Positions 5,062 through 63,787 of a stretch of DNA of 64,000 nt are shown here, in pieces. Origin of the DNA: Cyanobacteria bacterium P01_E01_bin.6 (GTDB lineage: Bacteria; Cyanobacteriota; Cyanobacteriia; CAKZMO01); contig JBCCWF010000001.1 in the NCBI GenBank assembly GCA_039194035.1, positions 3,970 to 67,969 of the forward strand. The letters are read 5' to 3'. Below the pieces are notes generated by a model. That model ran no database searches. It was not told the origin of the DNA and was given only the letters and a program-made list of their open reading frames with translations. Both the position numbers and the translations under genes were made by a program. Numbering within the stretch: the first letter of the stretch is position 1; each line of letters begins with the position of its first letter.

Positions 5062-5166
5062 TAAGTAGATAGACATAATTAAACGTATCCTTCCAAATCC
5101 TGTGCCGTCCGCGCAGCGGGCGGCACAGGATTTGGGGTTTTGGTTTTAATGACGTCCAGGTACTTA
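5062..5166. repeat. MITE-like dispersed repeat, family A copy 1 (TAAGTAGATAG...hairpin...GGTTTTAATGACGTCCAGGTACTTA)
   Basis: Shares termini (TAAGTA / TACTTA TIRs), the internal block CATAATTAAACGT, and a GC-rich hairpin AATCCTGTGCCG-CCGCGCAGCGGGCGGCACAGGATT with the other family A copies listed below. Confidence 0.7.
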
Positions 5167-5260
5167 AGCCTTACTTCGAACATTTTATGAGAGTAGAACA
5201 TCCTCATAAAAATGCATCAATTTGAATTAATGTGACAACCTGTATCCATCAATTTAGTGA

Positions 5261-5656
5261 TTAGAAAGGGCAAACAGGAGTGCTATTTGCATTGAGGTTG
5301 ATTGTACGAGTTGCATCACTCACGATGAATGGCTGGTCACCACCACGAGTTTCGCGAACCATCTCAGGAGATAGGCTCATGCAGCCTGCAACGGCTTCTC
5401 CCCATGCTGCAACATCCTCAGACATCGCATCGGTAATGGGGGTATCGGTCGTAACTGAAGCATCTTGAACAATGCTGATTTCCATTGGAAGCGCATATCT
5501 CCAAGGGGTGACAGGAATAGATGGAAGAGAGACGTCACGGCCTCCAACAATTGTCTCCTCATCAGGAGAATAGGTTTCTGCCAACTCTGCATTTGCAGGA
5601 AGAGCAAAACCAATCGCAGCTGCTGCGACGCCTAAGATGGCAATTTTTCTTAACAT
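5261..5656 (-). CDS. small secreted hypothetical protein (signal peptide MLRKIAILGVAAAAIGFALPANA)
   Basis: Start set at the internal Met that gives a canonical signal peptide. No family match. Confidence 0.4.
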   Translation of the reverse strand: MLRKIAILGVAAAAIGFALPANAELAETYSPDEETIVGGRDVSLPSIPVTPWRYALPMEISIVQDASVTTDTPITDAMSEDVAAWGEAVAGCMSLSPEMVRETRGGDQPFIVSDATRTINLNANSTPVCPF

Positions 5657-5913
5657 TTTTTGTACTCCTAGTGATTGGGAAAATGTTCGTCTACAACGAG
5701 GTATCGCCATCGCTAATGAGATATTCAATAATAGAAGCCCTGCCAAAGAAATTACTTCGATAGGATCTTAAGGCTATCTCAATATTCATGGCGACTGTTT
5801 CAATATTCCCAAAAAATATTGCGTGTGTAGCAAAAGGTATTGAAACTGATTTGTGATTTTTCTTCTTCAGAAAAACACGTATATATGAGGTTGTCAAAGA
5901 ATTTGGGGAAATG

Positions 5914-7542
5914 TTAATTACCCCTCTCGGTATGGTTTAAATTTTCTTCAATTTCTATTAGTAAAGAATATGTGAGTGAATGGTCTGGGTTGATCCGAAT
6001 GGCTGTTTCAAGAGCTTCTAATGCATCGTTTGTTTGACCGAGCGCATATAGGGCATGGCCTTGTCCAGCTAGGATGTCGGGGTGATTTGGGGCTTTCGTA
6101 AGCGCTTCATTGTAGGCAATTAACGCATCTTGAAAATGCCCGAGGCTCGCCAATGCAGTGCCTCGGTTATACCAGCCGATATATGAATCCGGCTGACGGG
6201 CGATCGCCTCATCTGCCGAATCGATCGCTTCCTCATACCGTTGGAGATACCAGAGAATAACGCTGCGGTTTGCCCACGCATTTTCTTGTTGGGGAGCTAA
6301 GGCAACCACCTCATCATAGGCTTGGAGCGCAGGTTCATAATCGCCTTGACTTCGGTATGCAATGGCTTGGTTGAACCAGGCGGTCACCAGGCTTCGATCA
6401 ATCGTGAGTGCCTGATTGGATGCAGCGATCGCCTGCTCATACTGTTCAAGATGCCAATGAATGGCGGCCTGATGGGCCCAAGCGGGGGCATAAGTGGGCA
6501 AAAAGCCCACCGCTCGATTTGATAGTGCGAGGGCTGTGTCAAAATTGCCAAGATGAGCATGGCTGATGCTTTGTTGATCCCATACCTGACCGATACCCAG
6601 AGGCCCCCACGTGCCGTCTCCGGCGATCGCCAGTTCACATGCCTCTAGAGCTTCGCTGTGGCGTTCCAATCGATTGAGCACATCACAGCGAAAAACGTGA
6701 GCCTTGCTGGAGCTGGGATTGAGTCGAACGGCTTGCTCAAGGGCATGGAGGCTATCGTCATTGTGGTTTTGAGCAGCAAGCAAGAGTCCCTGTTCTAGCC
6801 ATCTGTCAAAACTGGTGTCGTCAGCGCTGAGGGTGAGGTCGTAGGCGGCGATCGCCCGGTCTGGATCACCAATCTGAGCAAGAGCAATCGCCCGATGATA
6901 GAGCGCCATCTCTGGAGACGTGTTGCCCCAATCTTGGTTGTACCCGAGAGCCGCATCGCAGTTGATCAGGGCTTCACGAGGTTTTCCTAGGTAGTTGAGT
7001 GCTTCACAGCGGCGAGTGCGGAAACCGGAGCGGTCTGGATCGAGATGGATAACGTGGTTGTAACTGGCGATCGCCCCTTCCCAATCCTCCATTCCCGCGA
7101 GGGCGAGTCCTCGATATTCCCAAGCATCATCGGGACTATTTGTTCCCCAATGGCGATCGTGGGCAAGGGCATCGTCACAGGATGCAAGTGCCTCATCATA
7201 CTGTTCTAGAGTGACCTGAATTTGGCACTGGGCTAGGTAACTGGGCGAATCGTCAGCGCCTTCGTTGATGGCGGTATAAATGGCAACGAGTGCTTCCGCA
7301 GGTTCGTCGAGCTGTTGGAGGAGTGCGGTGTAGGTTAGCCAGAGATCGTCATCGTTGGGTTCTATCCCGAGGGCTTGTTCGCAGGCGATGCGGGCGGTTT
7401 CTAGAGCATTGGCGCCGATGAGGATATGACAGCGATCGCGCCAATAGTCCTCGTCATCAATGCCGTAGAGTCTAGCCGGAGTCTGGGCGAGGGCAGGGGT
7501 GGTGAGGAGGAGTGTCAGTGGGAGTGCGATGAGAAGGCGCAT
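5914..7542 (-). CDS. TPR-repeat protein with N-terminal signal peptide
   Basis: Signal peptide MRLLIALPLTLLLTTPALAQ. Many 34-residue repeats with the W-LG-Y / A-Y--A-P signature (e.g. AIAAYDLTLSADDTSFDRWLEQG). Confidence 0.7.
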   Translation of the reverse strand: MRLLIALPLTLLLTTPALAQTPARLYGIDDEDYWRDRCHILIGANALETARIACEQALGIEPNDDDLWLTYTALLQQLDEPAEALVAIYTAINEGADDSPSYLAQCQIQVTLEQYDEALASCDDALAHDRHWGTNSPDDAWEYRGLALAGMEDWEGAIASYNHVIHLDPDRSGFRTRRCEALNYLGKPREALINCDAALGYNQDWGNTSPEMALYHRAIALAQIGDPDRAIAAYDLTLSADDTSFDRWLEQGLLLAAQNHNDDSLHALEQAVRLNPSSSKAHVFRCDVLNRLERHSEALEACELAIAGDGTWGPLGIGQVWDQQSISHAHLGNFDTALALSNRAVGFLPTYAPAWAHQAAIHWHLEQYEQAIAASNQALTIDRSLVTAWFNQAIAYRSQGDYEPALQAYDEVVALAPQQENAWANRSVILWYLQRYEEAIDSADEAIARQPDSYIGWYNRGTALASLGHFQDALIAYNEALTKAPNHPDILAGQGHALYALGQTNDALEALETAIRINPDHSLTYSLLIEIEENLNHTERGN

Positions 7543-7621
7543 GGGAAGGGGGGGATGGGTGAGGGAATGGATGGGCGAGGGAATGGAGGAGTGAGGGAGT
7601 GGGGGAGTAGGGAGGTCGTCG

Positions 7622-10196
7622 CTAGTGGATGAATTGAGGTGGGATTTCGGTGGGGGTTAAGCGATCGGGTTCAGTGGGTCGGGGGGTATGGATGGAGTCG
7701 GGGGTGTTGGTGGCTGCTCCGTCTTGACGAGGGGTGGGCGATCGCCTATTGAGGTCAACCCGTTCTTGAGCACTTGCTTCTGTCACGGGGGGCAGTGGGG
7801 GAATTGTTTCGAGGGTAACGGATCGACTGATGCTTTCTCCCGCTTGATTGGTGACGCGCAGCGTCAGGGTTTCAATGCCGCCTTGGGGACTGAGTGGGTA
7901 GGCGATCGCCCCTTGTCGGGAGACGGTTCCAGGAGCAGGCAATAACTCTACGGTGACTTCTGGATCTCCGTCCACGCTCCACGTGATGGGAATGACTGGA
8001 GCTGGATCCTCCAGGTTTAGGGGAATGACGTACTTGGGTTGAGACGATTCACCATTCACAGCAAAGGATGTAATGGCAAAGGACAGACTGGGACGCTCGA
8101 TTTTGATGGGGTCGGTGATGTGGGTGTCTAGGGCGTCTTCAGTTCTTTCGATGTCAGCACCATCTGGTCGGGTGAAGAGCTGGAGTTCAAAGGTGTAGTG
8201 ACCCACGTTGCGGGCAGGAGTCGGCACGTTCCAACAGGAGAGCGTCCCATCTAGTTGGCAATAGTCTTCTAGTTCTGCTGGAACCCCTCGACTAAAGTCA
8301 AACTCGATGGGGGAAATGAGCGGCGATTGATCCGCGTCTCGGCCAATTAGAACAAGTCGATGCAGTGCTTCGGGATGGGCGATCGCCCAATTTAGGCGAA
8401 TGGGGGGAGTGAGAGTTGACGGAGTCTGAAGGGTGCGGTTGATAGAGTCCGATGACTCGGGGGCGATCGCCGCCACGTATCGAGCCTGAGTCGGCTCGAA
8501 GGTTGTGATGTCTGGCAGGGGAGTAGGGAGGATGGTGATGGGAGCCGTTTGACGGTTGAGCGTCTGGGTGTTCTGCTGATGGCGACGCCCTCGTCTGGTG
8601 TTGACTTCTAGATCAAAGCGATACAGTCCTGCTCGATAGGCATCGGTGGGAACGTTGTGACAAACCAACTGCGCACCCGAAATACAAAAGGGTTTGAGCT
8701 GGGCAGGGATGCCGTCTGAAAAATCAAAGGTGACAGACGGGCTCACGATGGCATCATCCGTGGGCGATCGCCCTACCAGTTCAACAATTTGTACTTGCTT
8801 GGGCTGACTAATATGCCAGTTCAACCGAATGGGCATTCCGTCCATTTCTTGATAGGACACCTCTGCAGAGGAAAATTCCAGAATTTCCGCTGGAGCGGGA
8901 GGGCGCAGCAAGAGCCAGAGCGGAAATCCAACGAGCGTCAGCATCCCAGCTCCTAATAACAGCAATAACATCAGATGCCACCAAGGTCTTGGCTGCCAAA
9001 CCACTCCTCCTTGCAAGGCGTCTTGAGTCAGAGGCAGTGCTTGCTCATCATCCAGTTCCACCATGAAGTTGAACACTTGACCGCCGCCTCGGAAGGGGCG
9101 TTTTCGAGCTGGATAGGGCTGGATGCCCAAGCTCATCGTGATGGATTCGTTGGGCAATACCTGAATAACTGGAGATACAGCGGTGTCTGGTGTTGGAGTT
9201 GCGTAGGATTCGATACGAGCCACCTTTTCTCCCTGGGTGACTTCAGCCCAATGGAACCGACAGATATCCGTGGCTTCATCCAAAACCCTGGCTCGGAGAC
9301 GGACTCGTCGAGCTGTATTTCCCCCATTGTTGAGCCGAATCCAATACAGTCCAGCTTGATGCTTGACAGTGCTTACCAGCGTCTTTAGCTCTGTGGTCAA
9401 CAGATAATGGGGGGCAACTTCCAGATACAGAATGTCTAACAGCACCAGGTCAGGATTGTTGGCTGAATGGAGGCGCAAGGTCGGTGCATGTTGTCCAGCA
9501 AGGGCATGAATCGGCAGGGTGATGGTCAGGCGGATTTCTCCCGTGCTGCGAGGATTTAACTCCAAGCTATCCGCGTCACGCACAAGGCCAACGGTCTCAA
9601 ATCCTTCTGGATAGCGAATGTGATACCAGTTGGGCGCTAAGTCAGGGCAGGTTAGTCGGAATCGATCGACGCGATCCGAGCGGTTGTAGACCATCAGTGC
9701 GACTTCAACTGACCCGCCCGGTTGCATCAGGAGAGGCTGATTTGATCGGGTAATCGGCTGCACTGTAAAGGTTGGGTCATTGACCTCGACAGTGGTTTGG
9801 TATTTCGGAATGACCTGGATGCGCTGGTCGTATTGAATGGGGGTGTCTTCGGGATAGTGATCAGGGGCATCGACGACGACTTGATAGGGATATACCTCTG
9901 GTGGTATTTGCAGAGGCACCTGAAGTTGAAACAGCACCTCACTACTTTGTCCAGCAATCAATGCCAATCGCTGAAACGGATTGCTGCACCACTGCATCAC
10001 TATCTGCGAGACATCGCTCAAATACACATCTATCAGAGCATTGTGTGCCCCTCGATTGTGAACGATGACGCTGAGTTCAACGGTGGAACCAGCCTCGATG
10101 GCGTGTTGTCCTGATGGACTGACAATGGTGGCAATCGGACAGGCGGCGATCGCCGCTGAGGCATCGCTTGATTTATCGCCATAGAAATCATCCATG
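7622..10196 (-). CDS. large membrane protein with multiple Ig-like (CARDB/DUF11-like) ~100-aa repeats and one central TM segment
   Basis: Start placed at MDDFYGDK. The upstream 100 codons of the ORF overlap the preceding gene and a G-rich tract. Repeats of the N-S-[DA]----F-L ... P--WY type; three C-terminal LNW-I--P / ITWSV repeats. TM segment WWHLMLLLLLGAGMLTLVGFPLWLLL. Confidence 0.5.
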
Positions 10197-10349
10197 GGAC
10201 GAGTGTTGGGGGGATGGGGGGAGATGGTCATGGTGGTGATGGAGTGGGGTGGAGTGGTGGAGAGAGTGAAGGGGTGAAGGGTTGGCGGGGTAAAGAGGTA
10301 GAAGTGGAAGGAGGAGGAGTAAATGGGGAGTAAATGAGGGATAGGGGAT

Positions 10350-12509
10350 TTAGGGGGCGTTGGAAAGGTCGCAGAGGGCGTCGTGGGTGCGATCGCGGCG
10401 ACGGACGCTGACTTGGGTGTTCTCGTTCCCGGAGGCGATGAGAAGGTCGTCATCCCAGATTTTGATATCAACGGTGTTGAATGGTGTTCGGACACGCTCG
10501 ACTTGAATACCGTCTCGATATTGGATGGAGCGTGTTCCGGCGGATGAGAGGGGCCACAACATCACGCGGCCATCTGCTCCAGCACTGGCGAGGTAGCACC
10601 CGTAGGGACTCAGAGCAATATCCCGTAACGGTTCACCACCATGTCCGTCATTCCATTCGTCGAGCACTTCGCACGGACGATTCGAAATGAGGCATGGTTT
10701 CAAATCCCATAGGGTGATGTAGCCTTGATTATCTGCTGTGGCCAATAAGTAGGGCTGCAAAAACACAGCCTCAACGCTGGTAATATACTGTGCTTGGCTT
10801 CCGGGGCGCGGGTAGGTGATGTCTAGCACGGTGTCTTGTTGCCAGTCCCAAATCGAAAGACGGTTGTAGCGCCCACCCGCAGCAAGGGTCGATTTTTCGT
10901 TTCCGACCATGGCAATGCCATAGACCGCAAAGTCAAACTGATGGAGCCGCACGGGAAGTTGAGCGATGTCATTGCGATCGCCCTGGGGATAGTCGAGCGC
11001 CCATTGCAGAACGGCACCGCTGCCATGACCACTGAGCAAGTGTCGAGAATCGTGAGTGAATTCCAAATCCATCACTCGATCATCTCGATCGAGGGCGAAG
11101 GTGGTCGTATGCCCCTGCCCGGTAAAAGAGCTGATTTGGATTTCGCCGTTTTCGAGTCCTGCGGCTAGCCAGTCGTTGTTGACTGGGCGATAGCGCACCA
11201 CTCGAATGGCTTTACCGGCGTCGGGCGATCGCCCCAGTTGTTGATTGATGATGGGGTTGAAAAATCCATTCACCCGCCATTGAATGGAGGTTTGGTCGCT
11301 AGACCCACTGATGACGTCATCTGTCGTACCGCTTAACTCAACGGAATTCACCGCTGCGCGATGACCAAAATAGGGATTCCCTGGATTCAGCCAGGAGAAC
11401 CACCAAATCAGATACAACACAATAAAACCCCCTAGCCCCTGGAGCCAAAGGGGAATGCGAGGCGGAATCCGAAGCGTCACCAATTGGGTGTCATCTTGGA
11501 CATCCACACGGGTATCGCTGACGGTGCCTTTCATGACAAACTGCATCTTTTTTGCGAACCCGACCCAGTGCCGCGAAATCAGCGCCCCAAGCTGAATCTC
11601 TGCTTGTTCGCCGGGATGTAAAAGCGTTTGATCGGGCACCACTTGGAGAGGGAGATGCACGCGATCATCTCCTTCGACGTCGAGAGACGCCTTCAGGGGA
11701 ATATTGCTCTCATTGTCAAAGGTCGCATCCCAGTAGACGCCATGACGTCCCCATTGATAATGGCGATCGCGCACCGGGAGCGTGTGCTCTTCGGGTGTGC
11801 AAGCAAAGTGCACCTCACCTTGAGCCAACACATCCAAATTGCCCAGAGCTTCTGACGTGGTTCCCTCAGGCTGGATGGCTCGGAGCGTAAACGGATAAGC
11901 TCCACAGATGGCATTGACATGGTCAGGCAGTCTGACTATCAGTAAGGTTTCAACGGTGCTATCAGCGGGAATATCGATCGCCTGCTCAACACCGCCAACG
12001 ATCCATTCCGGTGGAATTCCGTCTATCCAGAGCGTCGTTTCACTCTTTTCATGGGACGAGTTTTCCAGAAAAACCGGAATCTGAACCTGGTCAAGCGGAT
12101 TTGCCTGAAACTGGCGCACGGGCATCTTGATGCCAATGGGTAGCTCGCCACCCGGATCAACCTGTAGACGGAGAATGCGCCTCTCTTCCCCAAGTTCTAA
12201 GGATGTGACACGTACCGTGAGATTCACAAGCCCAGCAAAGCCTGGAATCGGAGATCCCAAAATGGAGACGTGAAATTCGGTGCGATCGCCCGGTGGTTTT
12301 TTGCTGGCGATTTCTGGCGTGAGGTCGTACCAAGCGTTGGCGCTGTCTTCATTTCCAGGTGCAAAGAGATCCAATTGAAACGTCGCAAAACGATCGCTCT
12401 GATTCACCACCACCACTACGAACTGGGTCGGTTCACTGCCAGGGGTGTAGTGGAGGGTTCGGGGTGGAACCGCAATTCCAATGCGTGTATCGGTTGTTGT
12501 AAGAGTCAT
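10350..12509 (-). CDS. membrane protein: N-terminal Ig-like repeats, TM helix, C-terminal WD40 beta-propeller
   Basis: Three N-terminal ~110-aa repeats (NQSDRFATFQLDLFAPG...WYDL; NSSHEKSET...; NESNIP...). TM segment IPLWLQGLGGFIVLYLIWWFSWL. WD40-like repeats (GHRAAVNSVELS...SGSSDQTSIQW; LLSGHGSGAVLQWAL; WDW, LWDL motifs). Confidence 0.6.
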   Translation of the reverse strand: MTLTTTDTRIGIAVPPRTLHYTPGSEPTQFVVVVVNQSDRFATFQLDLFAPGNEDSANAWYDLTPEIASKKPPGDRTEFHVSILGSPIPGFAGLVNLTVRVTSLELGEERRILRLQVDPGGELPIGIKMPVRQFQANPLDQVQIPVFLENSSHEKSETTLWIDGIPPEWIVGGVEQAIDIPADSTVETLLIVRLPDHVNAICGAYPFTLRAIQPEGTTSEALGNLDVLAQGEVHFACTPEEHTLPVRDRHYQWGRHGVYWDATFDNESNIPLKASLDVEGDDRVHLPLQVVPDQTLLHPGEQAEIQLGALISRHWVGFAKKMQFVMKGTVSDTRVDVQDDTQLVTLRIPPRIPLWLQGLGGFIVLYLIWWFSWLNPGNPYFGHRAAVNSVELSGTTDDVISGSSDQTSIQWRVNGFFNPIINQQLGRSPDAGKAIRVVRYRPVNNDWLAAGLENGEIQISSFTGQGHTTTFALDRDDRVMDLEFTHDSRHLLSGHGSGAVLQWALDYPQGDRNDIAQLPVRLHQFDFAVYGIAMVGNEKSTLAAGGRYNRLSIWDWQQDTVLDITYPRPGSQAQYITSVEAVFLQPYLLATADNQGYITLWDLKPCLISNRPCEVLDEWNDGHGGEPLRDIALSPYGCYLASAGADGRVMLWPLSSAGTRSIQYRDGIQVERVRTPFNTVDIKIWDDDLLIASGNENTQVSVRRRDRTHDALCDLSNAP

Positions 12510-12565
12510 CGCGTTTTAGTTCCTGGTTCAATTCCCTGAGTCAATCGCCTGGGTTATTCCCAGCC

Positions 12566-14485
12566 TCAATCGCCTGCAATCAGTCTTCTTAAGCGGTTTT
12601 GTACCCAGTTCAGATAATTGTGTTGACCCTCTGATTCGGGCATTTGAAGAGTGGTCAAATTGTTTGATAACTCTTGGCTGGATGCTTGGCGCTGCTTCAG
12701 CGTATTGAGGATCCGATCTTCCAACTCTGGATACTCGGTCAGCACCTGACGTAATCCATTGCGATTCAACACAAATAGGGCTATTGGTGTGACCGCTCTG
12801 ACACTGGCAACCCTCGGCACATCTAGGAACAACGAAAACTCTCCCACCACTTCACCCGCTTGAATTGATGTCAAATAACGGGGCGAATCTTCATCCGTTA
12901 AGACCTCTGCTGTGCCATCTAACAAAAAATAGAGTTCATTCCCCTGATCACCCGCACGACAAATAGTCGTACCTGCTGGCACATGCTGCTCTTCCCCAAA
13001 TTCCAATAGGCGATATCGTTCTTCCAACGTAAAGTTTTGGAAGTAAGAAACGATTTGGAGGCGCTCCGCTAGGTTTGGAGCCTGTGCAAGGGCGATCGCA
13101 CTGCGAATTGACTGAGATTGGTGAATTAATTTTTGCCAGGCCGTGACATTCCCCAACTGCGTCAATTGAGCATGCCGGAGAGATTGTTGGGCATGTTCTT
13201 GCTGCAACTGTTGGAGCTGTTGTTGGAGTCCTTGCTGACGGCTATAGACAACCTTTGCCATATCTTGAAAGATGCGGGCTAAGCGCCCCAGTTCATCTTG
13301 TCGTCGGAGGACTGGAGTCAGCAAGTCTGGGTCATGCTTTTCTTCTTCAATTAGACATGCAGCTCGTGTTAATCGGATGATGGGCTGAGTAATCCAGCGT
13401 GCAACAAAAATGCCCATTAAGCTTGCACCAACGGCAACCAACAGTCCCACTTGAATGGTGGAACGTAAACTCGCAAGGGTGATTTCCTTGAAATCAGTGG
13501 ATGGCACCATCACCACGACAATCCAATCGATTCCCGCAGGATCAAAGATCGTGTCAACGCCGATGTATTGCTCAATGCCGGATATCTTTAGAACAAATTC
13601 TTCAGATGTCGTCAGGGTGGAAAACTGTCCCATTTCATCCAAGAGTTGAGTCGTAATATCTCGAATCAATGGGTTGTTGCTCTCGGTCGCGATAATGCGG
13701 TGCTTTTCTTGATCAATTACATCAATTACCTTAAAAAGCTCCGCATGCATGGACGTTGCAATGAGTTCTCCTGAGCGCTCCATCACAAAGGCATGACCCG
13801 CAGGGCTAATTTCCAGTTCTTCAAGGAAATGCCCCAGACTTGCCAGAGAAAGGTCAAGTCCAAAAACGCCCTGCACCTCTCCATCTGCTGTATATATCGG
13901 TTGGGCAGCAGTGACACCCAGAGTTGTTTCTGTGGCAAAGGCATAGACCGGACTCCAAGCAAACTCACCAGATTTGATTGCTTGCTCATACCAGACGCGA
14001 CTCCGTGGATCGTAGATCTGCGACTGAAGCAATTCGGTCGGTTCTCGCTGCTCATTTAGACGATAGGTTAGGCGATTTGGTACCGTGTCTTGATTGCGGA
14101 GCTGAATCGTCCAGCTTCCATCTCCGGCCTCGCTGAATCCCAAGTAATTCCCTTTGGCATTGCCAAAGAAAATGCGTTTGGGCAGATCGGGTTGCTGAAC
14201 CAAATTCCAGAGTGTATCTGCCAAATCCTCATGAGACGAGTAATCGACATCAGATGCACTGCCCTCTAAGGTGGCCAGCATGGTTTGATACAACACCTTG
14301 GAATCGGCGAGATGGTTTTTCACATGGCGCTCAATTGACCCAGTGGCTTTACGACTAATTTCCTCAGCGAGTTCATGCACCACTTCTTGTTCGCTGAGAT
14401 AGGAGAGCCAACTACCCAACCCGACGGCGGCAAAGATGGGCATGACGATGAGAATAGGGAGGGTGACACGGATGGGGAGGCGCAT
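12566..14485 (-). CDS. signal-transduction protein: N-terminal TM + periplasmic Cache-like sensor, HAMP domain, Gln-rich coiled coil, C-terminal cyclic-nucleotide-binding (cNMP) domain; no output enzyme or DNA-binding domain
   Basis: N-terminal TM. Second TM followed by a HAMP-like segment (VARWITQPIIRLTRAACLIEEE). QQLQQLQQE coiled coil. C-terminal cNMP-binding signature (GDQGNELYFLLDGTAEVL ... AGEVVGEFSLF ... RVASVRAVTP). Confidence 0.6.
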   Translation of the reverse strand: MRLPIRVTLPILIVMPIFAAVGLGSWLSYLSEQEVVHELAEEISRKATGSIERHVKNHLADSKVLYQTMLATLEGSASDVDYSSHEDLADTLWNLVQQPDLPKRIFFGNAKGNYLGFSEAGDGSWTIQLRNQDTVPNRLTYRLNEQREPTELLQSQIYDPRSRVWYEQAIKSGEFAWSPVYAFATETTLGVTAAQPIYTADGEVQGVFGLDLSLASLGHFLEELEISPAGHAFVMERSGELIATSMHAELFKVIDVIDQEKHRIIATESNNPLIRDITTQLLDEMGQFSTLTTSEEFVLKISGIEQYIGVDTIFDPAGIDWIVVVMVPSTDFKEITLASLRSTIQVGLLVAVGASLMGIFVARWITQPIIRLTRAACLIEEEKHDPDLLTPVLRRQDELGRLARIFQDMAKVVYSRQQGLQQQLQQLQQEHAQQSLRHAQLTQLGNVTAWQKLIHQSQSIRSAIALAQAPNLAERLQIVSYFQNFTLEERYRLLEFGEEQHVPAGTTICRAGDQGNELYFLLDGTAEVLTDEDSPRYLTSIQAGEVVGEFSLFLDVPRVASVRAVTPIALFVLNRNGLRQVLTEYPELEDRILNTLKQRQASSQELSNNLTTLQMPESEGQHNYLNWVQNRLRRLIAGD

Positions 14486-14560
14486 GGTGGTGGGTAGGGA
14501 AGGAGTAGGGGAGTAGGGGAAGGGGAGTAGGAGTGTGGGAATAAAGGTTTTAGAGGGCTT

Positions 14561-14631
14561 GGGTCGGGGCGCAGGGCATGTGCCTTTGGTCGGATGTTGA
14601 AGATACGGAAATCTTGATGAAAATGAAGGGC
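14561..14631 (-). promoter_or_regulatory. conserved ~70-nt intergenic element, copy 1 (between the 543-aa gene stop and the cNMP-sensor gene start)
   Basis: ~80% identical to 16181-16250. Shared blocks GGGGCGCA..CATG.GCC, TCGG.T.T.GAA.ATACG.GAAT.TTGATGAAAA.GAAGGGC. Contains an imperfect palindrome GGCGCAGGGCATGTGCC. Confidence 0.45.
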
Positions 14632-14646
14632 AAAGAGTTACAGGAG

Positions 14647-16146
14647 TTAGGGTGTTGGGGGTGGAGGGGAGGATGGTGACGGGGCCTGAAGTTGGGTGAG
14701 TCGATGACGTTGCCAGGTGGTGTAGAGGGCATTGATGCCTAGTTCTTCGGCGGCACGAAGATCACCCCGTGACAAAGGTTCACCTAGATAACCTTGGAGC
14801 GCGGAGGTAACGTTGCCTAAAATGACGCTGAATCCTCGTCCTACCAAGATTTTGTGGAGTTGCTGGGCAAAGGTCGGTAGGGTTGAAAAATGGAAGGGTT
14901 GGCATCGGAGGGGATGGAGAGGAGGCAGGTCTTCCCAAGGGGTCAGCGTAATATCGAGGGGTTGGAGAAATGGCTCATAGTGGATGCTGATGGTGGCTAA
15001 TTTTTCGCCAATGAGCACCGAAATTTCGTCGAGTTCTTGAGTCAGTTCACTGTGCATGCGATCCATGTCTGAGTTGGCAGGAGGGGCGTTGGACGAAAAA
15101 GCTTGTTGATTGGGCGATCGCCCCAGTCGAGCATCAGTGACATCCTGCACCGAACTGAGTTGCTTGATGGCATCACTGAGTCGCTGATGCACCATGAGCA
15201 ATTCACCGAGATCATCCTCTTGCATCGGGTGTTCGACGATAATGCTGCCTCCAGATTGAATGTAGTGCTGGAACGCGGCAGCACTATGTTGAATCATCTG
15301 TTGAAAGGAGATGTGGCTGATGAACAGAACCGCACAATCCAATAGTTCGGCTTGCACTGTCGGAGTCATTTCTGTGAAGATGAGTGGCGACAGTGGTTGA
15401 AGTTTGGGATAGAGTCCAGGGAGCGATCGCAACAATGACTCAATGCCCTCCACGAGTGGGGACTCATGACGAATGGCCACGCGAATCGAGGCCGTTGAGC
15501 GGGGACAAACCTGTGGGCGATAGCGCAAATCCAAACGACCTGGCGTCGGATTTAGAACATCTCGCACTGGCTCAAGGGCAACAAAATCTGCTTGTAGCTG
15601 AATTCGGCACAGCTCAATTTCATTGGCTTGAGGTGGACAGTCTTTCTCGTCAATCCGATAGGTCTCGCGCATGATTTGGTTGCGACCATCCCCTTCTAGG
15701 GTTTCGGGGTCGACATAGCGCAACACGATGTAAACAACCTGGCTACCAATTTCACCATTGGATAAAACGCGGCCAGCCTCGTTGCGGGGTTGTCCCCGGT
15801 GGTCGGGTTTGCTTTCGACCTGACTTCCTGGAACGGATGCAATGCGAAAGTCTACAGACTCTGGTACCACGATGGGGTTGCCATTCACATCAATGGCCAA
15901 ACCGGGCTGAATCTGGAGCCAGCGCTGATCGCGAAACTGACTCGCGACCGTAGACGGTGGTGGAATAATGCAAACGCCTAGCCCATCAACGATGCCAGGT
16001 TGGTTGACCGATTGAAAATGCAGGTTTTGGCGCTGTCGGTGATAGGCATGAGCCAATTGCCATCGCTCTGCATTAATCAGCAAGCCATCGGATACTCGCA
16101 ACCGTTCGAAGGGATCAAGTTTTGGAGGGGGGAGAGGATTGGGCAT
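14647..16146 (-). CDS. hypothetical protein in the baseplate-gene string (possible additional baseplate/tail component)
   Basis: Start placed at MPNPLPPPKLDPFERL, downstream of the overlap with the preceding gene. No confident family match. Co-directional and tightly spaced with the GpI-like gene. Confidence 0.45.
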   Translation of the reverse strand: MPNPLPPPKLDPFERLRVSDGLLINAERWQLAHAYHRQRQNLHFQSVNQPGIVDGLGVCIIPPPSTVASQFRDQRWLQIQPGLAIDVNGNPIVVPESVDFRIASVPGSQVESKPDHRGQPRNEAGRVLSNGEIGSQVVYIVLRYVDPETLEGDGRNQIMRETYRIDEKDCPPQANEIELCRIQLQADFVALEPVRDVLNPTPGRLDLRYRPQVCPRSTASIRVAIRHESPLVEGIESLLRSLPGLYPKLQPLSPLIFTEMTPTVQAELLDCAVLFISHISFQQMIQHSAAAFQHYIQSGGSIIVEHPMQEDDLGELLMVHQRLSDAIKQLSSVQDVTDARLGRSPNQQAFSSNAPPANSDMDRMHSELTQELDEISVLIGEKLATISIHYEPFLQPLDITLTPWEDLPPLHPLRCQPFHFSTLPTFAQQLHKILVGRGFSVILGNVTSALQGYLGEPLSRGDLRAAEELGINALYTTWQRHRLTQLQAPSPSSPPPPTP

Positions 16147-16180
16147 GGGGTTTGGGGGAGTGAAGGATTTAGATGACTGG

Positions 16181-16250
16181 GGGAGGGGCGCATCGCATGC
16201 GCCCTTAATCGGGTATGGAAAATACGAGAATGTTGATGAAAACGAAGGGC
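16181..16250 (-). promoter_or_regulatory. conserved ~70-nt intergenic element, copy 2 (between the GpI-like gene stop and the 543-aa gene start)
   Basis: Paralogous to 14561-14631. Contains the perfect 8-bp-stem hairpin GGGCGCAT-CGC-ATGCGCCC. Confidence 0.45.
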
Positions 16251-16258
16251 GATCGCCG

Positions 16259-17338
16259 TTAAGTTGGCCGAGGCTCAATATGTAGGTCGTATGTGCAGTG
16301 GGCTGGTTTTTCTTGGGTGATAATGCGGTGAATTAAAGGGGGATGAATGGTGTCGGTCGTGTCGGGGCGGAGGGTGACGATGAAATGATAGGGACGGCCT
16401 CTGCCGAGGGTGGCGTTGGGGCCAAGATGAACATCCCCAAGGGTGAAGGCTTGGTTGGATGATTCTTGAATGGAAATGGCGCGATCGCCCTCTGACAACT
16501 GGTCATCGAGGGGAAGTCCGGTGGCATAGTGCAAAAACAACCTCAGTCCCCGACGAGTTCCGCGCCATTGGTAGATTTCCATGGCATGACGCATCAGTCG
16601 TCGCTGCTGATTGGGTAACAGCGGCAGCTCATCCATCGGCCAAGCGACCCAATGAGCCAAGAACGGCAGGAGGGCTTCTGGGGCAGTGAGAGGATCGAGG
16701 TAGCGTGTCAGCGCCTCGGTTGTTTCGATAATGGGGCGGAGTGCTTGCTCAAACACCTGCAAATAGCGATGCATGAAATCGACTTCTCGGTATACCGCGG
16801 GTAGCAGTTCCGAGAGTCTTGTGCGGGGACGCACAAACAGATTCAGACCCATGTATTCGAGCCGCCGCTGTTGCCTAAGTTCTGTGTGATTGTCTGTGTT
16901 ATTTGCGGTGTTATGGGCGGTTAGCTGTGGATCGTTCAGCGGTACCTGGTGTTGATAGGCAACCACCACATCCATGCGGTAATCGAGGGTGAGGACTTGC
17001 CGAGGGCTGAGGGCATGATCATCTTCAAAAAAGGAGTCTGGAACCTGGAACCGCAGGACTCCTTCCATTCGCTTGTATGGAGCAATGTCGTGGGCTTCCA
17101 GCCGAATGTGATACCAGTGAGACGGGAAGTTTCCTTCCAGCCGGACTTCGATAGAAATTGGCTCAGCGCTGGTATTCTCAAACAGCATGAGCAGTTCGCT
17201 TGGTTCCCCAGGAAACAGCACCAGATTTAGGCCGCCGCGCCCCAATTCGTCCTCACTCGTCGTCGGGGCGATCGCCTCCGAGGTTTGCATGGGGGCAAAC
17301 CGGAGATTGAGCGCAGGAGCCGGACGAGTGTGAACCAT
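16259..17338 (-). CDS. phage tail protein, P2 GpI-like (TIGR02242-type) with an N-terminal Ig-like domain
   Basis: C-terminal region (LPFLAHWVAWPMDELPLLPNQQRRLMRHAMEIYQWRGTRRGLRLFL) matches the conserved tail-protein-I family signature (W-G--D--W-----R-L-----LY--RGT--GL). The N-terminus carries the same N-S...WYHI Ig-like motif as the neighbouring large proteins. Confidence 0.55.
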   Translation of the reverse strand: MVHTRPAPALNLRFAPMQTSEAIAPTTSEDELGRGGLNLVLFPGEPSELLMLFENTSAEPISIEVRLEGNFPSHWYHIRLEAHDIAPYKRMEGVLRFQVPDSFFEDDHALSPRQVLTLDYRMDVVVAYQHQVPLNDPQLTAHNTANNTDNHTELRQQRRLEYMGLNLFVRPRTRLSELLPAVYREVDFMHRYLQVFEQALRPIIETTEALTRYLDPLTAPEALLPFLAHWVAWPMDELPLLPNQQRRLMRHAMEIYQWRGTRRGLRLFLHYATGLPLDDQLSEGDRAISIQESSNQAFTLGDVHLGPNATLGRGRPYHFIVTLRPDTTDTIHPPLIHRIITQEKPAHCTYDLHIEPRPT

Positions 17339-17389
17339 AAAATCCTTAATCTAAAATCCTTCAATCACAAGAGCGCTGAACCATCGCCA

Positions 17390-19570: not shown

Positions 19571-19658
19571 AGCGCTTCTCAGAGTATGGGGCCGAGAGGT
19601 GAAGCCAGATCATGAGGTGAGTAAGATGCCCGATAGCGCGGCTTATGACACTGCTGCA

Positions 19659-20195: not shown

Positions 20196-20259
20196 CGATT
20201 GCCGTCACGATATCGCAGGGATGCGGAGGTCAGTATTCGCCAAAAGTCGAATAACGAAA

Positions 20260-20301: not shown

Positions 20302-20444
20302 GTTGAGTTTATTGATCCAAATGTGCGAGTACTAGCTGTAATGCTTGTGGGCATACTTAACGTAGGGGTTAATCTCATTGACATCGTTTCTTTGTTATTG
20401 GCCTTTGGCATACTAAACGAATAAGCCCCCTGAGGAGATAGTGC

Positions 20445-21029: not shown

Positions 21030-21041
21030 GGCGTAAATATT

Positions 21042-21467: not shown

Positions 21468-21516
21468 GCCCAACATGGTTTGGGTTTAAGTAGATAGGCA
21501 TAAATAGACTCACTTT

Positions 21517-21567
21517 AAAAGCCTGGGGAGTGCCCCGGATGGGCGCTCCCCAGGCTTTTGTTTTTTT
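21517..21567 (+). terminator. rho-independent terminator (AAAAGCCTGGGGAG...CTCCCCAGGCTTTTGTTTTTTT)
   Basis: 14-bp perfect stem followed by a T-run, directly after the 21042-21467 ORF. Confidence 0.75.
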
Positions 21568-21612
21568 AGTTTAATAACGCCAAGCTACTTAGATTACAGT
21601 CAAATAGAGAAT

Positions 21613-23961: not shown

Positions 23962-23981
23962 GCAATTCAGTGTAAGTTCCC

Positions 23982-24030
23982 AAAAAACTAGGGAGAACCC
24001 CTGAGAGGCTCTCCCTAGTTTTTTGGGTTT
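23982..24030 (+). terminator. rho-independent terminator (AAAAAACTAGGGAGAACCCCTGAGAGGCTCTCCCTAGTTTTTTGGGTTTT)
   Basis: Perfect long stem plus T-run after the reductase gene. Confidence 0.75.
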
Positions 24031-24065
24031 TCAGTTTAATGAATGATTATCTACTTAGTCTGATC

Positions 24066-24168
24066 AGTACCTGGACGCAATTAAAACCAAAACCTCAAAC
24101 CCTGTGCAGCCTGCGCAGCGGGCGGCACAGGGTTTGAAAGTTACCTTTACTTATGTCTAGCTACTTAC
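24066..24168. repeat. MITE-like repeat family A copy 2 (inverted orientation)
   Basis: TAAGTACCTGGACGCAATTAAAACCAAAACC ... CCTGTGCAGCCTGCGCAGCGGGCGGCACAGGG ... TAGCTACTTA. Confidence 0.65.
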
Positions 24169-31001: not shown

Positions 31002-31011
31002 TCAGTAAATG

Positions 31012-31104
31012 GCCATTATTAAACGTGCTGTTCCAACCCCTATGCCGCCTTCGCAGTGGGCGGCATAGGGGTTGGGGATTTGGTTTCATTCTGTCCAGGT
31101 ACGT
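31012..31104. repeat. MITE-like repeat family A copy 3 (hairpin variant CCCCTATGCCGCC / GGCGGCATAGGGG)
   Basis: TTAAACGTGCTGTTCCAA...GGTTTCATTCTGTCCAGGTAC. Confidence 0.6.
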
Positions 31105-31189
31105 AGTGTGTTGTCTCGTATTGTGTCTCTTATCGAGCAGCCTATTTTCCATTCGTTGTCTCATTCAGCTCATTTATTAGCCGTTCATC

Positions 31190-37494: not shown

Positions 37495-37529
37495 AGGTGA
37501 GTTTTAGCTTATGAAGCAACTCGCTATAA

Positions 37530-37618
37530 TTGAACGTACCCTCCCAAATCCTGCGCTGCCTGCGCAGCGGACAGCACAGGATTTGAGTTTTTGTTTCTAA
37601 TTACGCCCAGTTACTGAA
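37530..37618. repeat. MITE-like repeat family A copy 4 (hairpin variant CCTGCGCTGCC / GGACAGCACAGG)
   Basis: ATAATTGAACGTACCCTCCCAAATCCTG...GGATTTGAGTTTTTGTTTCTAATTACGCCCAGTTACTGAAC. Confidence 0.6.
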
Positions 37619-41014: not shown

Positions 41015-41127
41015 CTGGTAAGTACCTGGACGTCATTAAAACCCAAAATCCAAATCCTGTACCGCCCGCGCAGCGGGCGGTACAGGATTTGGAAGAATAC
41101 GTTTAATTATGGCTATCTACTTATTGT
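41015..41127. repeat. MITE-like repeat family A copy 5 (inverted; hairpin variant CCTGTACCGCC / GGCGGTACAGG)
   Basis: GTAAGTACCTGGACGTCATTAAAACCCAAAATCC...ACGTTTAATTATGGCTATCTACTTA. Confidence 0.7.
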
Positions 41128-41673: not shown

Positions 41674-41756
41674 TAAGTAACTAGCCATCATTAAACGTAA
41701 CCTTCCAAATCCTGCCAGGATTTGGATTTTTGGTTTTAATGATGTCCAGGTACTTA
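41674..41756. repeat. MITE-like repeat family A copy 6 (hairpin truncated)
   Basis: GATAAGTAACTAGCCATCATTAAACGTAACCTTCCAAATCCTGCCAGGATTTGGATTTTTGGTTTTAATGATGTCCAGGTACTTA. Confidence 0.65.
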
Positions 41757-46452: not shown

Positions 46453-46492
46453 CTCAAAGGCATCAGATCAAAATTGCAATGAAGAAATGAGA

Positions 46493-46536
46493 ATTTAGGG
46501 TTTTGGTTTTAATGACGCCCAGGTATTGAGTAAGCC
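46493..46536. repeat. MITE family A fragment (3' half only: GGGTTTTGGTTTTAATGACGCCCAGGTATTGAGTAAG)
   Basis: Matches the conserved right arm of family A. Confidence 0.5.
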
Positions 46537-49683: not shown

Positions 49684-49860
49684 CTTAAAATTGATAAAGG
49701 CTCGTTACATTGCAATGGGCTTTTATCAATATCTTACCCGTGTCTTATTCATGCTTCTCGTGGTCATAGTCTGAAGAGAGAGATGTTTATGGGGATATTA
49801 CGTGTCCTCGTGAACATGTCTCTTGTGTCAACTAACGGATCTACTGACAGCTAAGTAAGT

Positions 49861-49945
49861 GGCCACAAAACCCATAAAACCCTTCGCCGTCCACTGCTCG
49901 GGTGGCGAAGGGTTGTGAATGTGGATCCTAATTGTGCCGAGGTAC
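49861..49945. repeat. divergent MITE family A-like copy (hairpin CCCTTCGCCGTCCACTGCTCGGGTGGCGAAGGG)
   Basis: Flanks resemble AAAACCCATAAAACC and GAGGTACTTATAG of family A. Lower confidence. Confidence 0.35.
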
Positions 49946-50168
49946 TTATAGCGTTTACCCTATGTCACGAACGCCTATATCACGAACGAGAGATGGCAGC
50001 GCCTTTTCTCCAGACTGCTGTGCATACACATCGTGTTTCATATACGCAAGATCGAAGAACCCTTTCTTAGTTCTCTTTGATGACTTCTTTCACCATTTCT
50101 GGGGATGGATGACGGGTTCTTTGCGTCAAAGAATGAATTAAAAATTTATGGCTATGGTTATTAAAGCT

Positions 50169-50265
50169 GACTTGGCAACGTTTGCAGAGGACTAGGGTTT
50201 GGAGCGCGCAACGCACGCCCCAAACCCTTAATTCTTCGTTGCCATTGTGAGAGGTTTGCCAAGTC
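50169..50265. repeat. MITE-like repeat family B copy 3
   Basis: GACTTGGCAACGTTTGCAGAGGACTAGGGTTTGGAGCGCGCAACGCACGCCCCAAACCCTTAATTCTTCGTTGCCATTGTGAGAGGTTTGCCAAGTC. Confidence 0.7.
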
Positions 50266-50422
50266 ATGTATTACCCCCGCGACTTGCTATGGAGAAATGA
50301 GAGGAGGGCTAGCTTCCTTTGACTAGGGTAATAAGCTGTTAGCGATTCAATTGCATGGCTGTACCCCTAATCCGGCAGGGTACAGCTACCAAAATACTCA
50401 AAACACGTGAATTTTAAGCTTA

Positions 50423-62873: not shown

Positions 62874-62881
62874 TAGCTAGC

Positions 62882-63670
62882 TTAATTAAGTTGATATGCA
62901 TATTCATAAATCTCATATTCAAGCTCATGCCGTTGCTTAAAAGTTATAATTGACTTCTGAGAAGGTCTATTATCCCTTTCTGTAACATTTGAAATGGGAA
63001 TTTCAATGGATTGAAATCCTAGTTTTGAAGCTAAAATGTCAATAGATTTTTGATATTTTTCAAGAATACAGATATGGATGAAATTCTTGTTGATTATTTC
63101 TTTAAAGTTTCTGCTTGAAACTTCCCAAGGTAAAAGCTTTAACAGGTAAAAATCTCTATTCAAAAGCCATTCATCAATATTAGGAAATTCAAAGTCATTT
63201 TGCAGCTCTCCCTCCCAGTATAAATTTCCAGATAAAATCATTTTTCTCATGTAGTGAAAAAGAGAAATATGCATCTCTAATGGATCACGTAAAGTCATTA
63301 TGAATTGACATGCATCAGGATAATGATCGAATACATTTTCATTTGAGATATAGGGTTGAAAATGTCCATGAACACATTCAGGTTGTTTTACGCGCCTAAT
63401 AAATCCATACGTTCTATCCAGAGAAACTATCCTTTTTTTGGCAACCTTCCGGTGATTTTTGTAATGTAAATAGAGACCACATCCTAGAACTTGTTGTAGC
63501 TTGAGATCAATACCTTTGAATGTTAATAGACTAGCTAATCTAGGATGATCATTAAGATTTGGAAACGTAGTCTTATTAAACCACTTACTTAGAGCATATT
63601 CCAAACTGGAGCCACCTGTCTTAGGGATATGAAGAGAAAACAAAGGCTTACTTGGATCATATACTCTCAT
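62882..63670 (-). CDS. sulfotransferase family protein (Sulfotransfer_2/3-like)
   Basis: N-terminal LHIPKTGGSSLEY PAPS-binding motif typical of carbohydrate sulfotransferases. Confidence 0.55.
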   Translation of the reverse strand: MRVYDPSKPLFSLHIPKTGGSSLEYALSKWFNKTTFPNLNDHPRLASLLTFKGIDLKLQQVLGCGLYLHYKNHRKVAKKRIVSLDRTYGFIRRVKQPECVHGHFQPYISNENVFDHYPDACQFIMTLRDPLEMHISLFHYMRKMILSGNLYWEGELQNDFEFPNIDEWLLNRDFYLLKLLPWEVSSRNFKEIINKNFIHICILEKYQKSIDILASKLGFQSIEIPISNVTERDNRPSQKSIITFKQRHELEYEIYEYAYQLN

Positions 63671-63682
63671 AATTATGGCGTA

Positions 63683-63787
63683 ATAAGTACCTGAACGTAA
63701 TTAAAACTAAAAAAAAATCCTTTGCCACCCATGCAGCACGCAGGCGGCAAAGGATCTTGAAGGACACGTTTAAATTATGGCTATCTA
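63683..63787. repeat. MITE-like repeat family A copy 9 (inverted; hairpin variant CCTTTGCCACC / GGCGGCAAAGG)
   Basis: AAGTACCTGAACGTAATTAAAACTAAAAAAAAATCCTTTGCC...ACGTTTAAATTATGGCTATCTACTTA. Confidence 0.65.

Follow-up and report, generated by a model that had tools for sequence, protein, structure and literature searches.

Small dispersed repeats of Nostoc were reportedly described by Elhai et al. in 2008 (Genome Res 18:1484). Among cyanobacterial MITEs, the Nezha, MaeMITE and Anabaena MITE families have been described (PMC3184786), and for Nezha a matching insertion sequence (ISNpu3), direct-repeat flanks and both filled and empty sites were demonstrated (PMC3184786). REPINs are doublets of REP sequences that form hairpins and are mobilised by RAYT transposases (Bertels & Rainey 2011, PMC3116915). 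Template switching in inverted repeats, which is a mutational process and not an element family, leads to compensated changes, arm homogenisation and spacer inversion (PMC8794818, PMC8604942).

Here we describe a repeat family that is new but belongs to a well-known type of element, from a 64-kb window (the whole stretch of DNA that was analysed), on a contig that is part of the MAG 'Cyanobacteria bacterium P01_E01_bin.6'. With moderate confidence, we regard its members as ~105-bp non-autonomous, probably trans-mobilised, palindromic intergenic MITE-/REPIN-like elements of a marine Leptolyngbyaceae-like cyanobacterium. No similarity to the family was found in Rfam, the plasmid and phage collections or the literature searched. 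In the Rfam scan of the window, the sole match above the gathering threshold was a tRNA, and only chance-level matches (E >= 0.19) appeared near 41019 and 41674.

A profile scan of the window with nhmmer, from which the copy coordinates are taken, gave nine full copies, one left-truncated member and one right-arm fragment (n = 11). The dispersed family of at least nine copies proposed by the first-pass annotation is hereby confirmed, with coordinates right to ~15 nt; the copies on its list are all real, while the members at 21487 and 23973 had been missed. Its statement that all copies are intergenic was also borne out (11 of 11), in a window that is ~86% coding and ~14% non-coding. The members are as follows:

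5062..5166, plus strand: full type-1 copy of 105 nt with a 20-bp stem, one T·G pair and loop GCA; in a convergent spacer, 234 nt 3' of the plus-strand gene 4120-4827.
21487..21591, plus strand: full member with type-1 ends (termini TAAGTAGATAGG...AAGCTACTTA) and another core, an unrelated hairpin AAAAGCCTGGGGAG.../...CTCCCCAGGCTTTT followed by a T7 run; 19 nt past the stop of gene 21042-21467.
23973..24057, plus strand: left-truncated member and weak nhmmer match, whose central hairpin (CCCAAAAAACTAGGGAGA...) is of a third kind and whose T-rich tail ends in ...TATCTACTTA; 11 nt 3' of the plus-strand gene 23344-23961, back-to-back with the 24064 copy.
24064..24167, minus strand: full type-1 copy with two stem mismatches and loop TGC (element orientation); 6 nt past the stop of the minus-strand phycobilisome-protein gene 24174-24641.
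31002..31105, plus strand: full type-1 copy in which three pairs are compensated when compared with the consensus; immediately past the stop codon of the Rieske gene 30519-31001.
37514..37617, plus strand: full type-1 copy with degenerate termini, its stem having three C·A pairs, one T·G pair and one compensated pair; 17 nt upstream of the longest ORF of a ChaN-like gene.
41019..41123, minus strand: best-preserved type-1 copy, with a flawless 21-bp stem; 16 nt past the stop of a minus-strand DUF3119 gene and 4 nt after the plus-strand gene 39917-41014.
41674..41756, plus strand: short derivative of 83 nt that has lost the GC-rich hairpin tip (CCTG|C|CAGG) and whose outer arms show more perfect complementarity; in a divergent (promoter-side) spacer, as is no other member.
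46491..46527, plus strand: right-arm fragment covering model positions 67-103; 38 nt after gene 45574-46452 and adjoining a fragment of a second repeat family (46468-46508).
49852..49948, plus strand: divergent type-1 copy of 97 nt with a shortened left arm and loop TGC, its stem having five compensated and six non-Watson-Crick pairs; 168 nt after gene 47518-49683.
63684..63791, minus strand: type-1 copy of 108 nt with an expanded loop; 8 nt past the stop of a minus-strand ORF that runs off the window end, and on its other side 13 nt upstream of gene 62882-63670.

The family is non-coding and dispersed, with stops in several frames and members of 83-108 nt, a typical full copy being ~105 nt long. 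In element orientation, an A-rich left arm and a T-rich right arm enclose a GC-rich central hairpin with a 20-21 bp stem and a 3-nt loop. The conserved ends are 11 nt long (TAAGTAGATAG on the left and CCAGGTACTTA on the right), and stop codons in all three frames are present in the left end of six of the nine copies. The terminal inverted repeats TAAGTA/TACTTA are perfect and the whole arms are ~79% complementary over 42 nt, while the sub-termini (left GATAG vs right CCTGG) are usually unlike each other. Within the window, the right-end 25-mer with up to three mismatches occurred six times (0.00 expected), and the ATAATTAAACGT block five times (0.21 expected). Folding Z-scores of the copies ranged from -3.6 to -9.5 as DNA and from -5.4 to -14 as RNA.

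The same ends enclose unrelated central hairpins at 21487, at 23973 and in Ga0224723, a different cyanobacterial metagenome bin with three 103-nt copies that have identical 11-nt ends and a different core. At least four unrelated cores were observed between the same ends. Independent palindromic sub-repeats, which the first-pass annotation had named as an alternative to compensatory evolution, are in part what these unrelated palindromes represent.

Like REPINs, the elements are ~100 nt long, intergenic and high in copy number, and each folds as a whole into a long hairpin; conserved ends with a variable middle, in which pairing is kept by compensatory changes, resemble Figure 4 of the REPIN study (PMC3116915). 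Unlike REPINs, the conserved ends here span just 11 nt and the left one is usually no exact inverted copy of the right, the most conserved paired part is central and GC-rich instead of terminal, and no RAYT was found among the window ORFs tested. SPRITE-like elements are likewise small dispersed intergenic repeats with a terminator-like stem-loop core, and they can influence transcript 3' ends. They belong to another phylum and share no sequence similarity with this family, in which the stem-loops are putative terminators and separate conserved ends surround an exchangeable hairpin. The cyanobacterial MITEs and the small dispersed repeats of Nostoc have in common with it a cyanobacterial host, a length of at most ~100-200 nt, terminal inverted repeats, hairpins predicted to be stable and a position between genes, whereas Nezha also has the matching IS, the direct-repeat flanks and the filled and empty sites.

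The compensated variation of the stems is statistically real. Among ten distinct sequences, 8 of the 20 stem pairs were changed on both sides, and 90.5% of the stem cells held standard pairs. Double-changed cells numbered 17, compared with 7.0±1.9 in shuffles (0 of 500 reached 17) and 1-6 in slid controls; only seven stems are comparable, and the shuffle statistics overstate independence because the copies share ancestry. Hence the correlated stem changes reported by the first-pass annotation are upheld, while its wording that the stems are perfectly paired was too strong. Watson-Crick pairing of the window-copy stems is ~85%, and 41019 alone is flawless, the other copies having 1-6 non-Watson-Crick pairs out of 20. 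The fourth stem given as an example, CCTTTGCCACC/GGCGGCAAAGG, holds a mismatch, and the 'consensus' pair, CCTGTGCCGCC/GGCGGCACAGG, is flawless in no window copy and only in the sister-strain ortholog of 41019.

From this covariation, selection on structure had also been concluded, a claim that is unsupported as stated: the covariation is weak evidence for RNA-level selection. The case is weak because the mismatches show no strand bias (G·T 10 vs A·C 6, p=0.45), because the stems diverge as fast as the arms (14.2% and 13.5%), because the loop is present in both orientations (relative to the arms, GCA in three copies and TGC in three to four), and because some members have unrelated hairpins between the same ends. 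It is further weakened because the 41019 ortholog differs by a compensated pair from a sister strain with a 98.7%-identical MAG. This complementary A..T vs G..C pair was observed at ~1.3% divergence, with p ~0.02-0.06 for independent hits by our own estimate; ectopic gene conversion between copies could be a further cause of the double change. Six recent stem changes were seen in the copies shared by the two strains, and besides the compensated pair they include three disruptive changes and one that improves pairing.

These observations bear directly on the possibility that the repeats are a structured-RNA family, in which a hairpin serving as terminator, mRNA 3'-end stabiliser or small-RNA module is kept at each locus by purifying selection through two-step compensation. 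The significant covariation, the very stable RNA folds, the placement at gene 3' ends in co-orientation with genes and the slight excess of G·U over A·C would all agree with it, as would stems that are paired far better than 15-25% neutral divergence would leave. But the G·U excess is non-significant, stems and arms change at the same rate, about half of the copies carry an inverted loop, and the same ends hold unrelated hairpins. Three of the six recent stem changes are disruptive, no Rfam match was found, and copy 41674 has no GC tip and lies in a promoter-side spacer. We therefore consider a structured-RNA family unlikely, and purifying selection on RNA at each locus is the less likely cause of stem pairing.

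Selection on an RNA is not needed for compensated stem changes, which can also come about in the DNA itself. The pattern of compensation is compatible with homogenisation of the palindrome at the DNA level, or with selection for hairpin formation while the element is being mobilised, as in REPINs. A related case is that of minute hairpin-loop inversions in chloroplast non-coding DNA. In the family described here, the halves of the stem change in concert. Homogenised outer arms are seen in copy 41674 and in a further copy on a Tara Oceans scaffold, and the loop variants GCA and TGC differ at all three bases with no intermediates among the copies. All three signatures of template-switch mutation in inverted repeats and quasipalindromes (PMC8794818, PMC8604942), namely one-step compensated changes, arm homogenisation and loop inversion, were thus found among the copies, the process being inferred here from patterns in seven to eight copies. 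Replication-linked template switching or hairpin-directed repair, by homogenising the arms and inverting the loop, would be the most likely causes of the concerted change of the stem halves. Alternatively or additionally, propagation may have been limited to hairpin-competent source copies.

It should be added that C-GCA-G is found on the plus strand of the window in 5-6 of seven copies, regardless of the orientation of the element. This GNA-type triloop is a very stable DNA triloop. One speculative and distinctly doubtful reading is that the 11-nt ends are a mobile 'carrier' that repeatedly acquires or exchanges different host terminator hairpins, with a core maintained by replication-coupled template switching and a loop orientation set by the chromosome strand. 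If this were true, strand-specific hairpin dynamics in a cyanobacterial chromosome would have a natural reporter in this family.

Cyanobacteria rely on intrinsic termination. The top-ranked terminator-like sites of the window coincide with copies 5062, 21487, 31002, 41019 and 41674, and in the element orientation only. In these five copies a GC-rich stem-loop is directly followed by a T-rich tract, a layout also seen in 23973, while the remaining copies fail the terminator scan because of stem mismatches or interrupted T runs. All five members in tandem-gene spacers point the same way as the genes on either side. Convergent spacers are over-represented: they make up 20% of the spacer length yet hold 5 of the 11 elements, and in one of them each gene has its own co-oriented element (23973 and 24064). 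The terminator role suggested by the first-pass annotation is accordingly plausible as far as the sequence goes, and the elements probably mark or create transcript 3' ends. Against such a role stand the promoter-side position of copy 41674, the lack of co-orientation with upstream genes among the Ga0224723 relatives (one being anti-oriented and another in a divergent spacer), and stems and U-tracts that depart from those of typical intrinsic terminators, the former by greater length and the latter by more interruptions. Read from its left end, the element would present stops, then a strong hairpin and then a U-rich tract, and may act as a portable stop-plus-intrinsic-terminator cassette. Such a cassette would account for the survival of copies mostly in places directly downstream of co-oriented genes.

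The MITE label of the first-pass annotation suits the anatomy, as the elements are small (<~500 bp), non-coding, multi-copy and dispersed, with terminal inverted repeats. Neither a transposase among the tested window ORFs and related loci nor an autonomous IS with matching ends in the window and the related loci examined was found. The window copies have no target-site duplication beyond the palindromic TA that belongs to the ends. Flanking repeats of 4-7 bp were present at three young Ga0224723 copies, where they vary in length and lie in C/T-rich low-complexity DNA. Comparison of the two strains gave no empty site, since all eight elements that the sister MAG covers lie at identical sites. 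'MITE' therefore stays a resemblance, because a transposase, a clear target duplication and an empty site were all not found. The conserved ends would presumably be transposase recognition sites.

In a REPIN-type element, a RAYT (an IS200/IS605-like Y1 transposase) would recognise the hairpin and move the element in the form of single-stranded DNA, and the covariation would then be due to element-level selection on the structure of the DNA. Two inverted conserved ends and a hairpin-forming variable spacer with compensatory changes in ~100 nt agree with this architecture (PMC3116915), as do the lack of an evident target duplication and the mismatches without strand bias. In copy 31002 the arms have diverged (24%) far more than the stem has decayed (2 of 20 pairs), which would be expected if divergence had mostly preceded insertion. 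In tagged REPs, the tetranucleotide GTAG abuts the stem; the left end here contains GTAG, but not abutting the stem. Moreover, the tested ORFs of the window yielded no RAYT or TnpA-like gene, and the left flanks have no conserved target tetranucleotide. The REPIN-type explanation is therefore possible, if on the unlikely side. An IS200/IS605-derived palindrome-associated element was rejected as a candidate: the conserved 4-5 nt target expected 5' of the left end is absent (flanks GTGA, GGTT, GTTG, ACAA, GCGA, CAGC, ATTG and others), and there is a single central hairpin and no distinct subterminal hairpins.

The repeats might also not be mobile at all, being host regulatory or terminator modules or protein-binding palindromes that were duplicated with their surroundings or arose by convergence. 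No transposase, target duplication or insertion polymorphism was found, and all sites are common to the two strains, in keeping with this view. However, the flanks of the window copies are mutually unrelated, and the copies stand in both orientations beside unrelated genes. In another cyanobacterium, three nearly identical copies have the same 11-nt ends around another core, and the element is missing next to the DUF3119 ortholog of two relatives (73-77% protein identity; the spacers are not alignable). A Logan contig of the same sample also breaks inside copy 5062, as assemblies do at repeats. Immobile host modules are thus very improbable, and we keep to probably trans-mobilised elements whose presence is lineage-specific.

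As a compact worked example, this family indicates that covariation among repeat copies is by itself no proof of a selected RNA structure, since a single step in palindromic DNA can bring about compensated changes, homogenised arms and an inverted loop. Covariation screens on dispersed repeats should therefore check strand asymmetry, loop orientation and stem-versus-flank substitution rates. For annotation, the elements explain many long hairpins and assembly breaks in the lineage. Their design is modular, with conserved ends around interchangeable terminator-like hairpins.

Family A is an intergenic palindromic repeat of about 105 nt with the ends TAAGTAGATAG (left) and CCAGGTACTTA (right), and its members are named here by their start in the window. 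An nhmmer profile built from the copies found nine full-length members (5062, 21487, 24064, 31002, which is the element also called 31003, 37514, 41019, 41674, 49852 and 63684) and a right-arm fragment at 46491. A left-truncated member at 23973-24057 was recognised by reading the spacer adjoining 24064, and a search for paired ends under relaxed match criteria, filtered by folding, revealed no more members in the window. The copy list of the first-pass annotation is correct but omits 21487 and 23973, which have different central hairpins. Chance similarity between copies was ruled out by two counts in the window: the right-end 25-mer has 6 matches at no more than 3 mismatches against 0.00 expected, and an internal 12-mer has 5 matches where 0.21 are expected. 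All family-A statistics rest on 7-11 related copies.

The consensus reads TAAGTAGATAGCCATAATTAAACGTA..CTT-CCAAATCCTGTGCCGCCCGC-(loop)-GCGGGCGGCACAGGATTTGG-..TTTTGGTTTTAAT.ACGTCCAGGTACTTA. Every copy forms one long hairpin, and both its DNA fold and its RNA fold are far stronger than those of shuffled sequence. The left end provides stop codons in all three frames (TAA, TAG, TAG), which is true in 6 of 9 copies and includes two substituted left ends, TAAGTAGCTAG and TAAGTAACTAG; the right end in reverse gives a stop in one frame only. The left and right sub-termini differ in most copies. In members 21487 and 23973 the two ends are both of the left type; in a copy from a Tara Oceans scaffold both are of the right type, and its arms pair correspondingly better. 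The ends of 21487 and 23973 are the same as those of the other members, and the palindromes that they enclose are wholly unrelated.

As the first-pass annotation had stated, all copies are intergenic: 11 of 11 members lie outside coding sequence, though about 86% of the window is coding. Tandem, convergent and divergent spacers make up 68%, 20% and 12% of the spacer length and hold 5, 5 and 1 members, respectively. Each of the five members in tandem spacers has the orientation of the genes on either side, and seven members begin 0-38 nt downstream of a stop codon. The convergent spacer 23962-24173 holds one co-oriented member behind each of its two genes, 23973(+) and 24064(-). Only 41674 sits in a promoter-side spacer, and its GC-rich hairpin tip is lost. 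In a consensus scan, 5062, 21487, 31003, 41019 and 41674 belonged to the window's strongest terminator-like sites; their stems of 10-20 bp lead into GGTTTTGGTT or TTTTTTTAG, and only the strand in element orientation gives a score. The earlier proposal that copies at gene 3' ends may be terminators agrees with placement, orientation and scan, but relatives in the cyanobacterial metagenome bin Ga0224723 break the rule: one lies anti-oriented after moaC, another in a divergent spacer upstream of psaL, though their cores are nearly symmetric. The pattern in the window supports, only suggestively, reading a family-A member as a stop-plus-terminator cassette (5/5 co-oriented, one-sided p=0.03).

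The window has a G+C content of 48% and contains the cyanobacterial HIP1 octamer GCGATCGC 96 times; one of its proteins has its closest named relatives in Leptolyngbyaceae at about 73% identity. The following genes and gene clusters were located.

765-1844: ORF with a C-5 cytosine DNA methylase domain
3931-4003, - strand: tRNA gene, adjoining a 365-aa ORF (2716-3813) without Pfam match
about 7600-20200, - strand: phage tail or contractile injection system-like gene cluster
16259-17338, within this cluster: Tail_P2_I domain protein
17390-19570, within this cluster: 'putative baseplate assembly protein'
19659-20195, within this cluster: gp25-like baseplate wedge protein

The sister metagenome-assembled genome P01_A01_bin.37 (GCA_039033975.1) is 98.7-99.3% identical to the window in three contigs spanning about 21.7-50.1 kb. 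The sole large indel is a 1.33-kb segment (20366-21697) missing from sister contig L010, and its junction is not at family-A ends. The segment contains a coiled-coil ORF, another ORF that matches no family, member 21487 and the 5' portion of a gene for an HNH endonuclease; in the sister genome this gene is truncated. A perfect tandem array of about five 14-nt units TTGGCCTGAATGAT occupies 26284-26353, at the 3' end of ORF 24887-26296; its alignment to L010 is offset, which suggests a difference in unit number.

Covariation was evaluated for the 20-bp central stem in ten distinct sequences, namely the seven window copies with a related stem (type-1 copies) and three differing sister orthologs. 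Standard pairs account for 90.5% of the stem cells, and both-sided changes occur at eight stem pairs. There are 17 double-change cells compared with 7.0±1.9 after shuffling, and 17 was reached in 0 of 500 shuffles. When the partner was slid by 1-3 columns, pairing fell to 32-45% and double changes to 1-6. By our count at least nine double changes are independent, some being common to several copies. Hence the correlated stem variation between copies noticed earlier is real, and only the description of the pairing as perfect was overstated, since 41019 alone is flawless and the others have 1-6 non-Watson-Crick pairs. Neutral decay at 15-25% divergence would leave about 55-70% of pairs intact; because the observed pairing exceeds this expectation, the stems are clearly kept paired by some force.

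The first-pass annotation concluded from this covariation that structure is under selection, but the data do not place the maintaining force on RNA. Five observations indicate that compensated variation alone is no proof of selection on an RNA. In element orientation, G·T pairs number 10 and A·C pairs 6 (p=0.45), and in an RNA made from a single strand G·U should be tolerated and A·C should not. Differences from the consensus are found at 34 of 240 stem and 51 of 378 arm positions, whereas classical two-step compensation should slow the stems. The loop, 3 nt long, reads GCA in three copies and the reverse complement TGC in three or four; with every base different and no intermediate form, it has been inverted relative to the arms. 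In the sister strain (about 1.3% divergence), the ortholog of 41019 has one pair changed on both sides, A..T versus G..C, and two adjacent loop bases also differ. We estimate a chance of about 0.02-0.06 that two among six stem substitutions strike partners and stay complementary; of the remaining recent stem changes in copies common to both strains, three are disruptive and one improves the pairing. Finally, the unrelated central palindromes of 21487, 23973 and the Ga0224723 elements also argue against inferring RNA selection from compensation alone.

Template switching by DNA polymerase within inverted repeats is known to produce one-step compensated changes, arm homogenisation and spacer inversion (PMC8794818; PMC8604942). 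In REPINs, conserved ends surround a spacer, and compensatory changes keep the hairpin capacity since the element moves as a hairpin (PMC3116915). A REPIN-like reading, in which most divergence would have arisen between source copies and each copy's 0-6 mismatches would reflect post-insertion decay, is equally compatible with the data. Copy 31003 fits this reading, with an arm divergence of 24% against 2 of 20 unpaired stem positions.

The loop was also inspected relative to the chromosome. C-GCA-G stands on the window + strand in 5062, 24064, 31003, 37514 and 41019 regardless of element orientation; 63684 is GCA-like, and among the seven type-1 copies only 49852 has TGC. Agreement of loop orientation is closer with the chromosome strand (5-6 of 7) than with the orientation of the element (3 versus 4), with too few copies for significance. 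GC skew is positive over the entire window.

The earlier classification as a MITE family agrees with size, non-coding content, copy number, inverted ends and dispersal, but no transposase, target duplication or empty site was found. No transposase emerged from Pfam scans that covered 20 ORFs of the window and 10 of the related loci L011 and L015, and in the window copies no target duplication was found beyond the TA inside the ends. No empty site was found between the two strains: the sister contigs L006, L008 and L010 carry every covered element at the same place. An insertion origin of the copies is indirectly supported: their flanks are mutually unrelated, in two relatives the syntenic SnoaL-DUF3119 pair has no element next to it (the spacer is only 47 nt in one), a copy exists on the Tara Oceans scaffold, and a short-read contig from the same sample terminates within copy 5062. 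An IS200/IS605-type end structure was rejected, and a mechanism of that type is unlikely, given left flanks without a common target motif.

Searching metagenomes for both ends with a gap gave two true loci, both from the HIP1-rich Ga0224723, one doubtful locus (L014) and two chance AT-rich matches. Ga0224723 holds three nearly identical 103-nt elements with family-A ends and unrelated central palindromes. The L014 stretch (Ga0307377_10033912, 1731-1813, 34% G+C) has 83 nt, the ends TAAGTAGATAG...CAGGTACTTA and a canonical terminator hairpin AAAACCCCG...CGGGGTTTTTTT, and it comes from a low-GC organism that lacks HIP1. Either distant relationship or chance agreement with the 21-base search pattern could account for it. 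The Tara Oceans copy was the sole yield of a six-frame 'peptide' query for read-through ORFs. Among the matches listed for the right-end pattern in the genome collection were only a conserved rpsB coding stretch and one chance match, and a longer right-arm pattern had 0 matches in metagenomes. Viral contigs gave 0 matches to the ends and 7 to the stem pattern, all of them non-hairpin chance matches. BLASTN found nothing in plasmids with a type-1 copy and a Ga0224723 element, or in phages with another type-1 copy and its flanks. Rfam returned nothing relevant at gathering and E-value thresholds, and the terminal 11-mers had only irrelevant matches in full-text literature.

Other repeats and hairpins in the window are as follows.

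42314-42418, 43168-43272, 50164-50268: second repeat family, 105 nt
46468-46508: fragment of the second family, abutting the family-A fragment 46491
37381-37494: two tandem 57-nt units directly upstream of member 37514, each with the hairpin GGTTGTCCTCC.GACGGAGGCGGGAGACAACC
50348-50404: third copy of the 57-nt unit, 65% similar
42234-42280, 26430-26468, 39661-39702, 5003-5040: long intergenic hairpins outside family A

In the second family the ends GACTTGGCAACGTTT...AACGTTTGCCAAGTC are truly inverted, the central GC-rich hairpin varies and has a loop of 3 nt, and the tail is ATTTCTTCGT; this design, conserved ends and a variable hairpin, is that of family A. Of the long hairpins, one pairs flawlessly over 22 bp and has a GGA loop, another has an 18-bp stem that leads into TTTCTTCGTAATGAG, a third is a 19-bp palindrome with HIP1 at its centre, and the fourth lies a short way upstream of copy 5062.

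Family A resembles REPINs (PMC3116915), SPRITE and Correia elements, and cyanobacterial MITEs such as Nezha, which are a well-known kind (PMC10969869, PMC3184786). Searches of Rfam and of the plasmid, phage and viral collections, and the literature search with its termini, gave nothing resembling it. Its most interesting details are the modular ends combined with an exchangeable hairpin, and the flip-flop of the loop.
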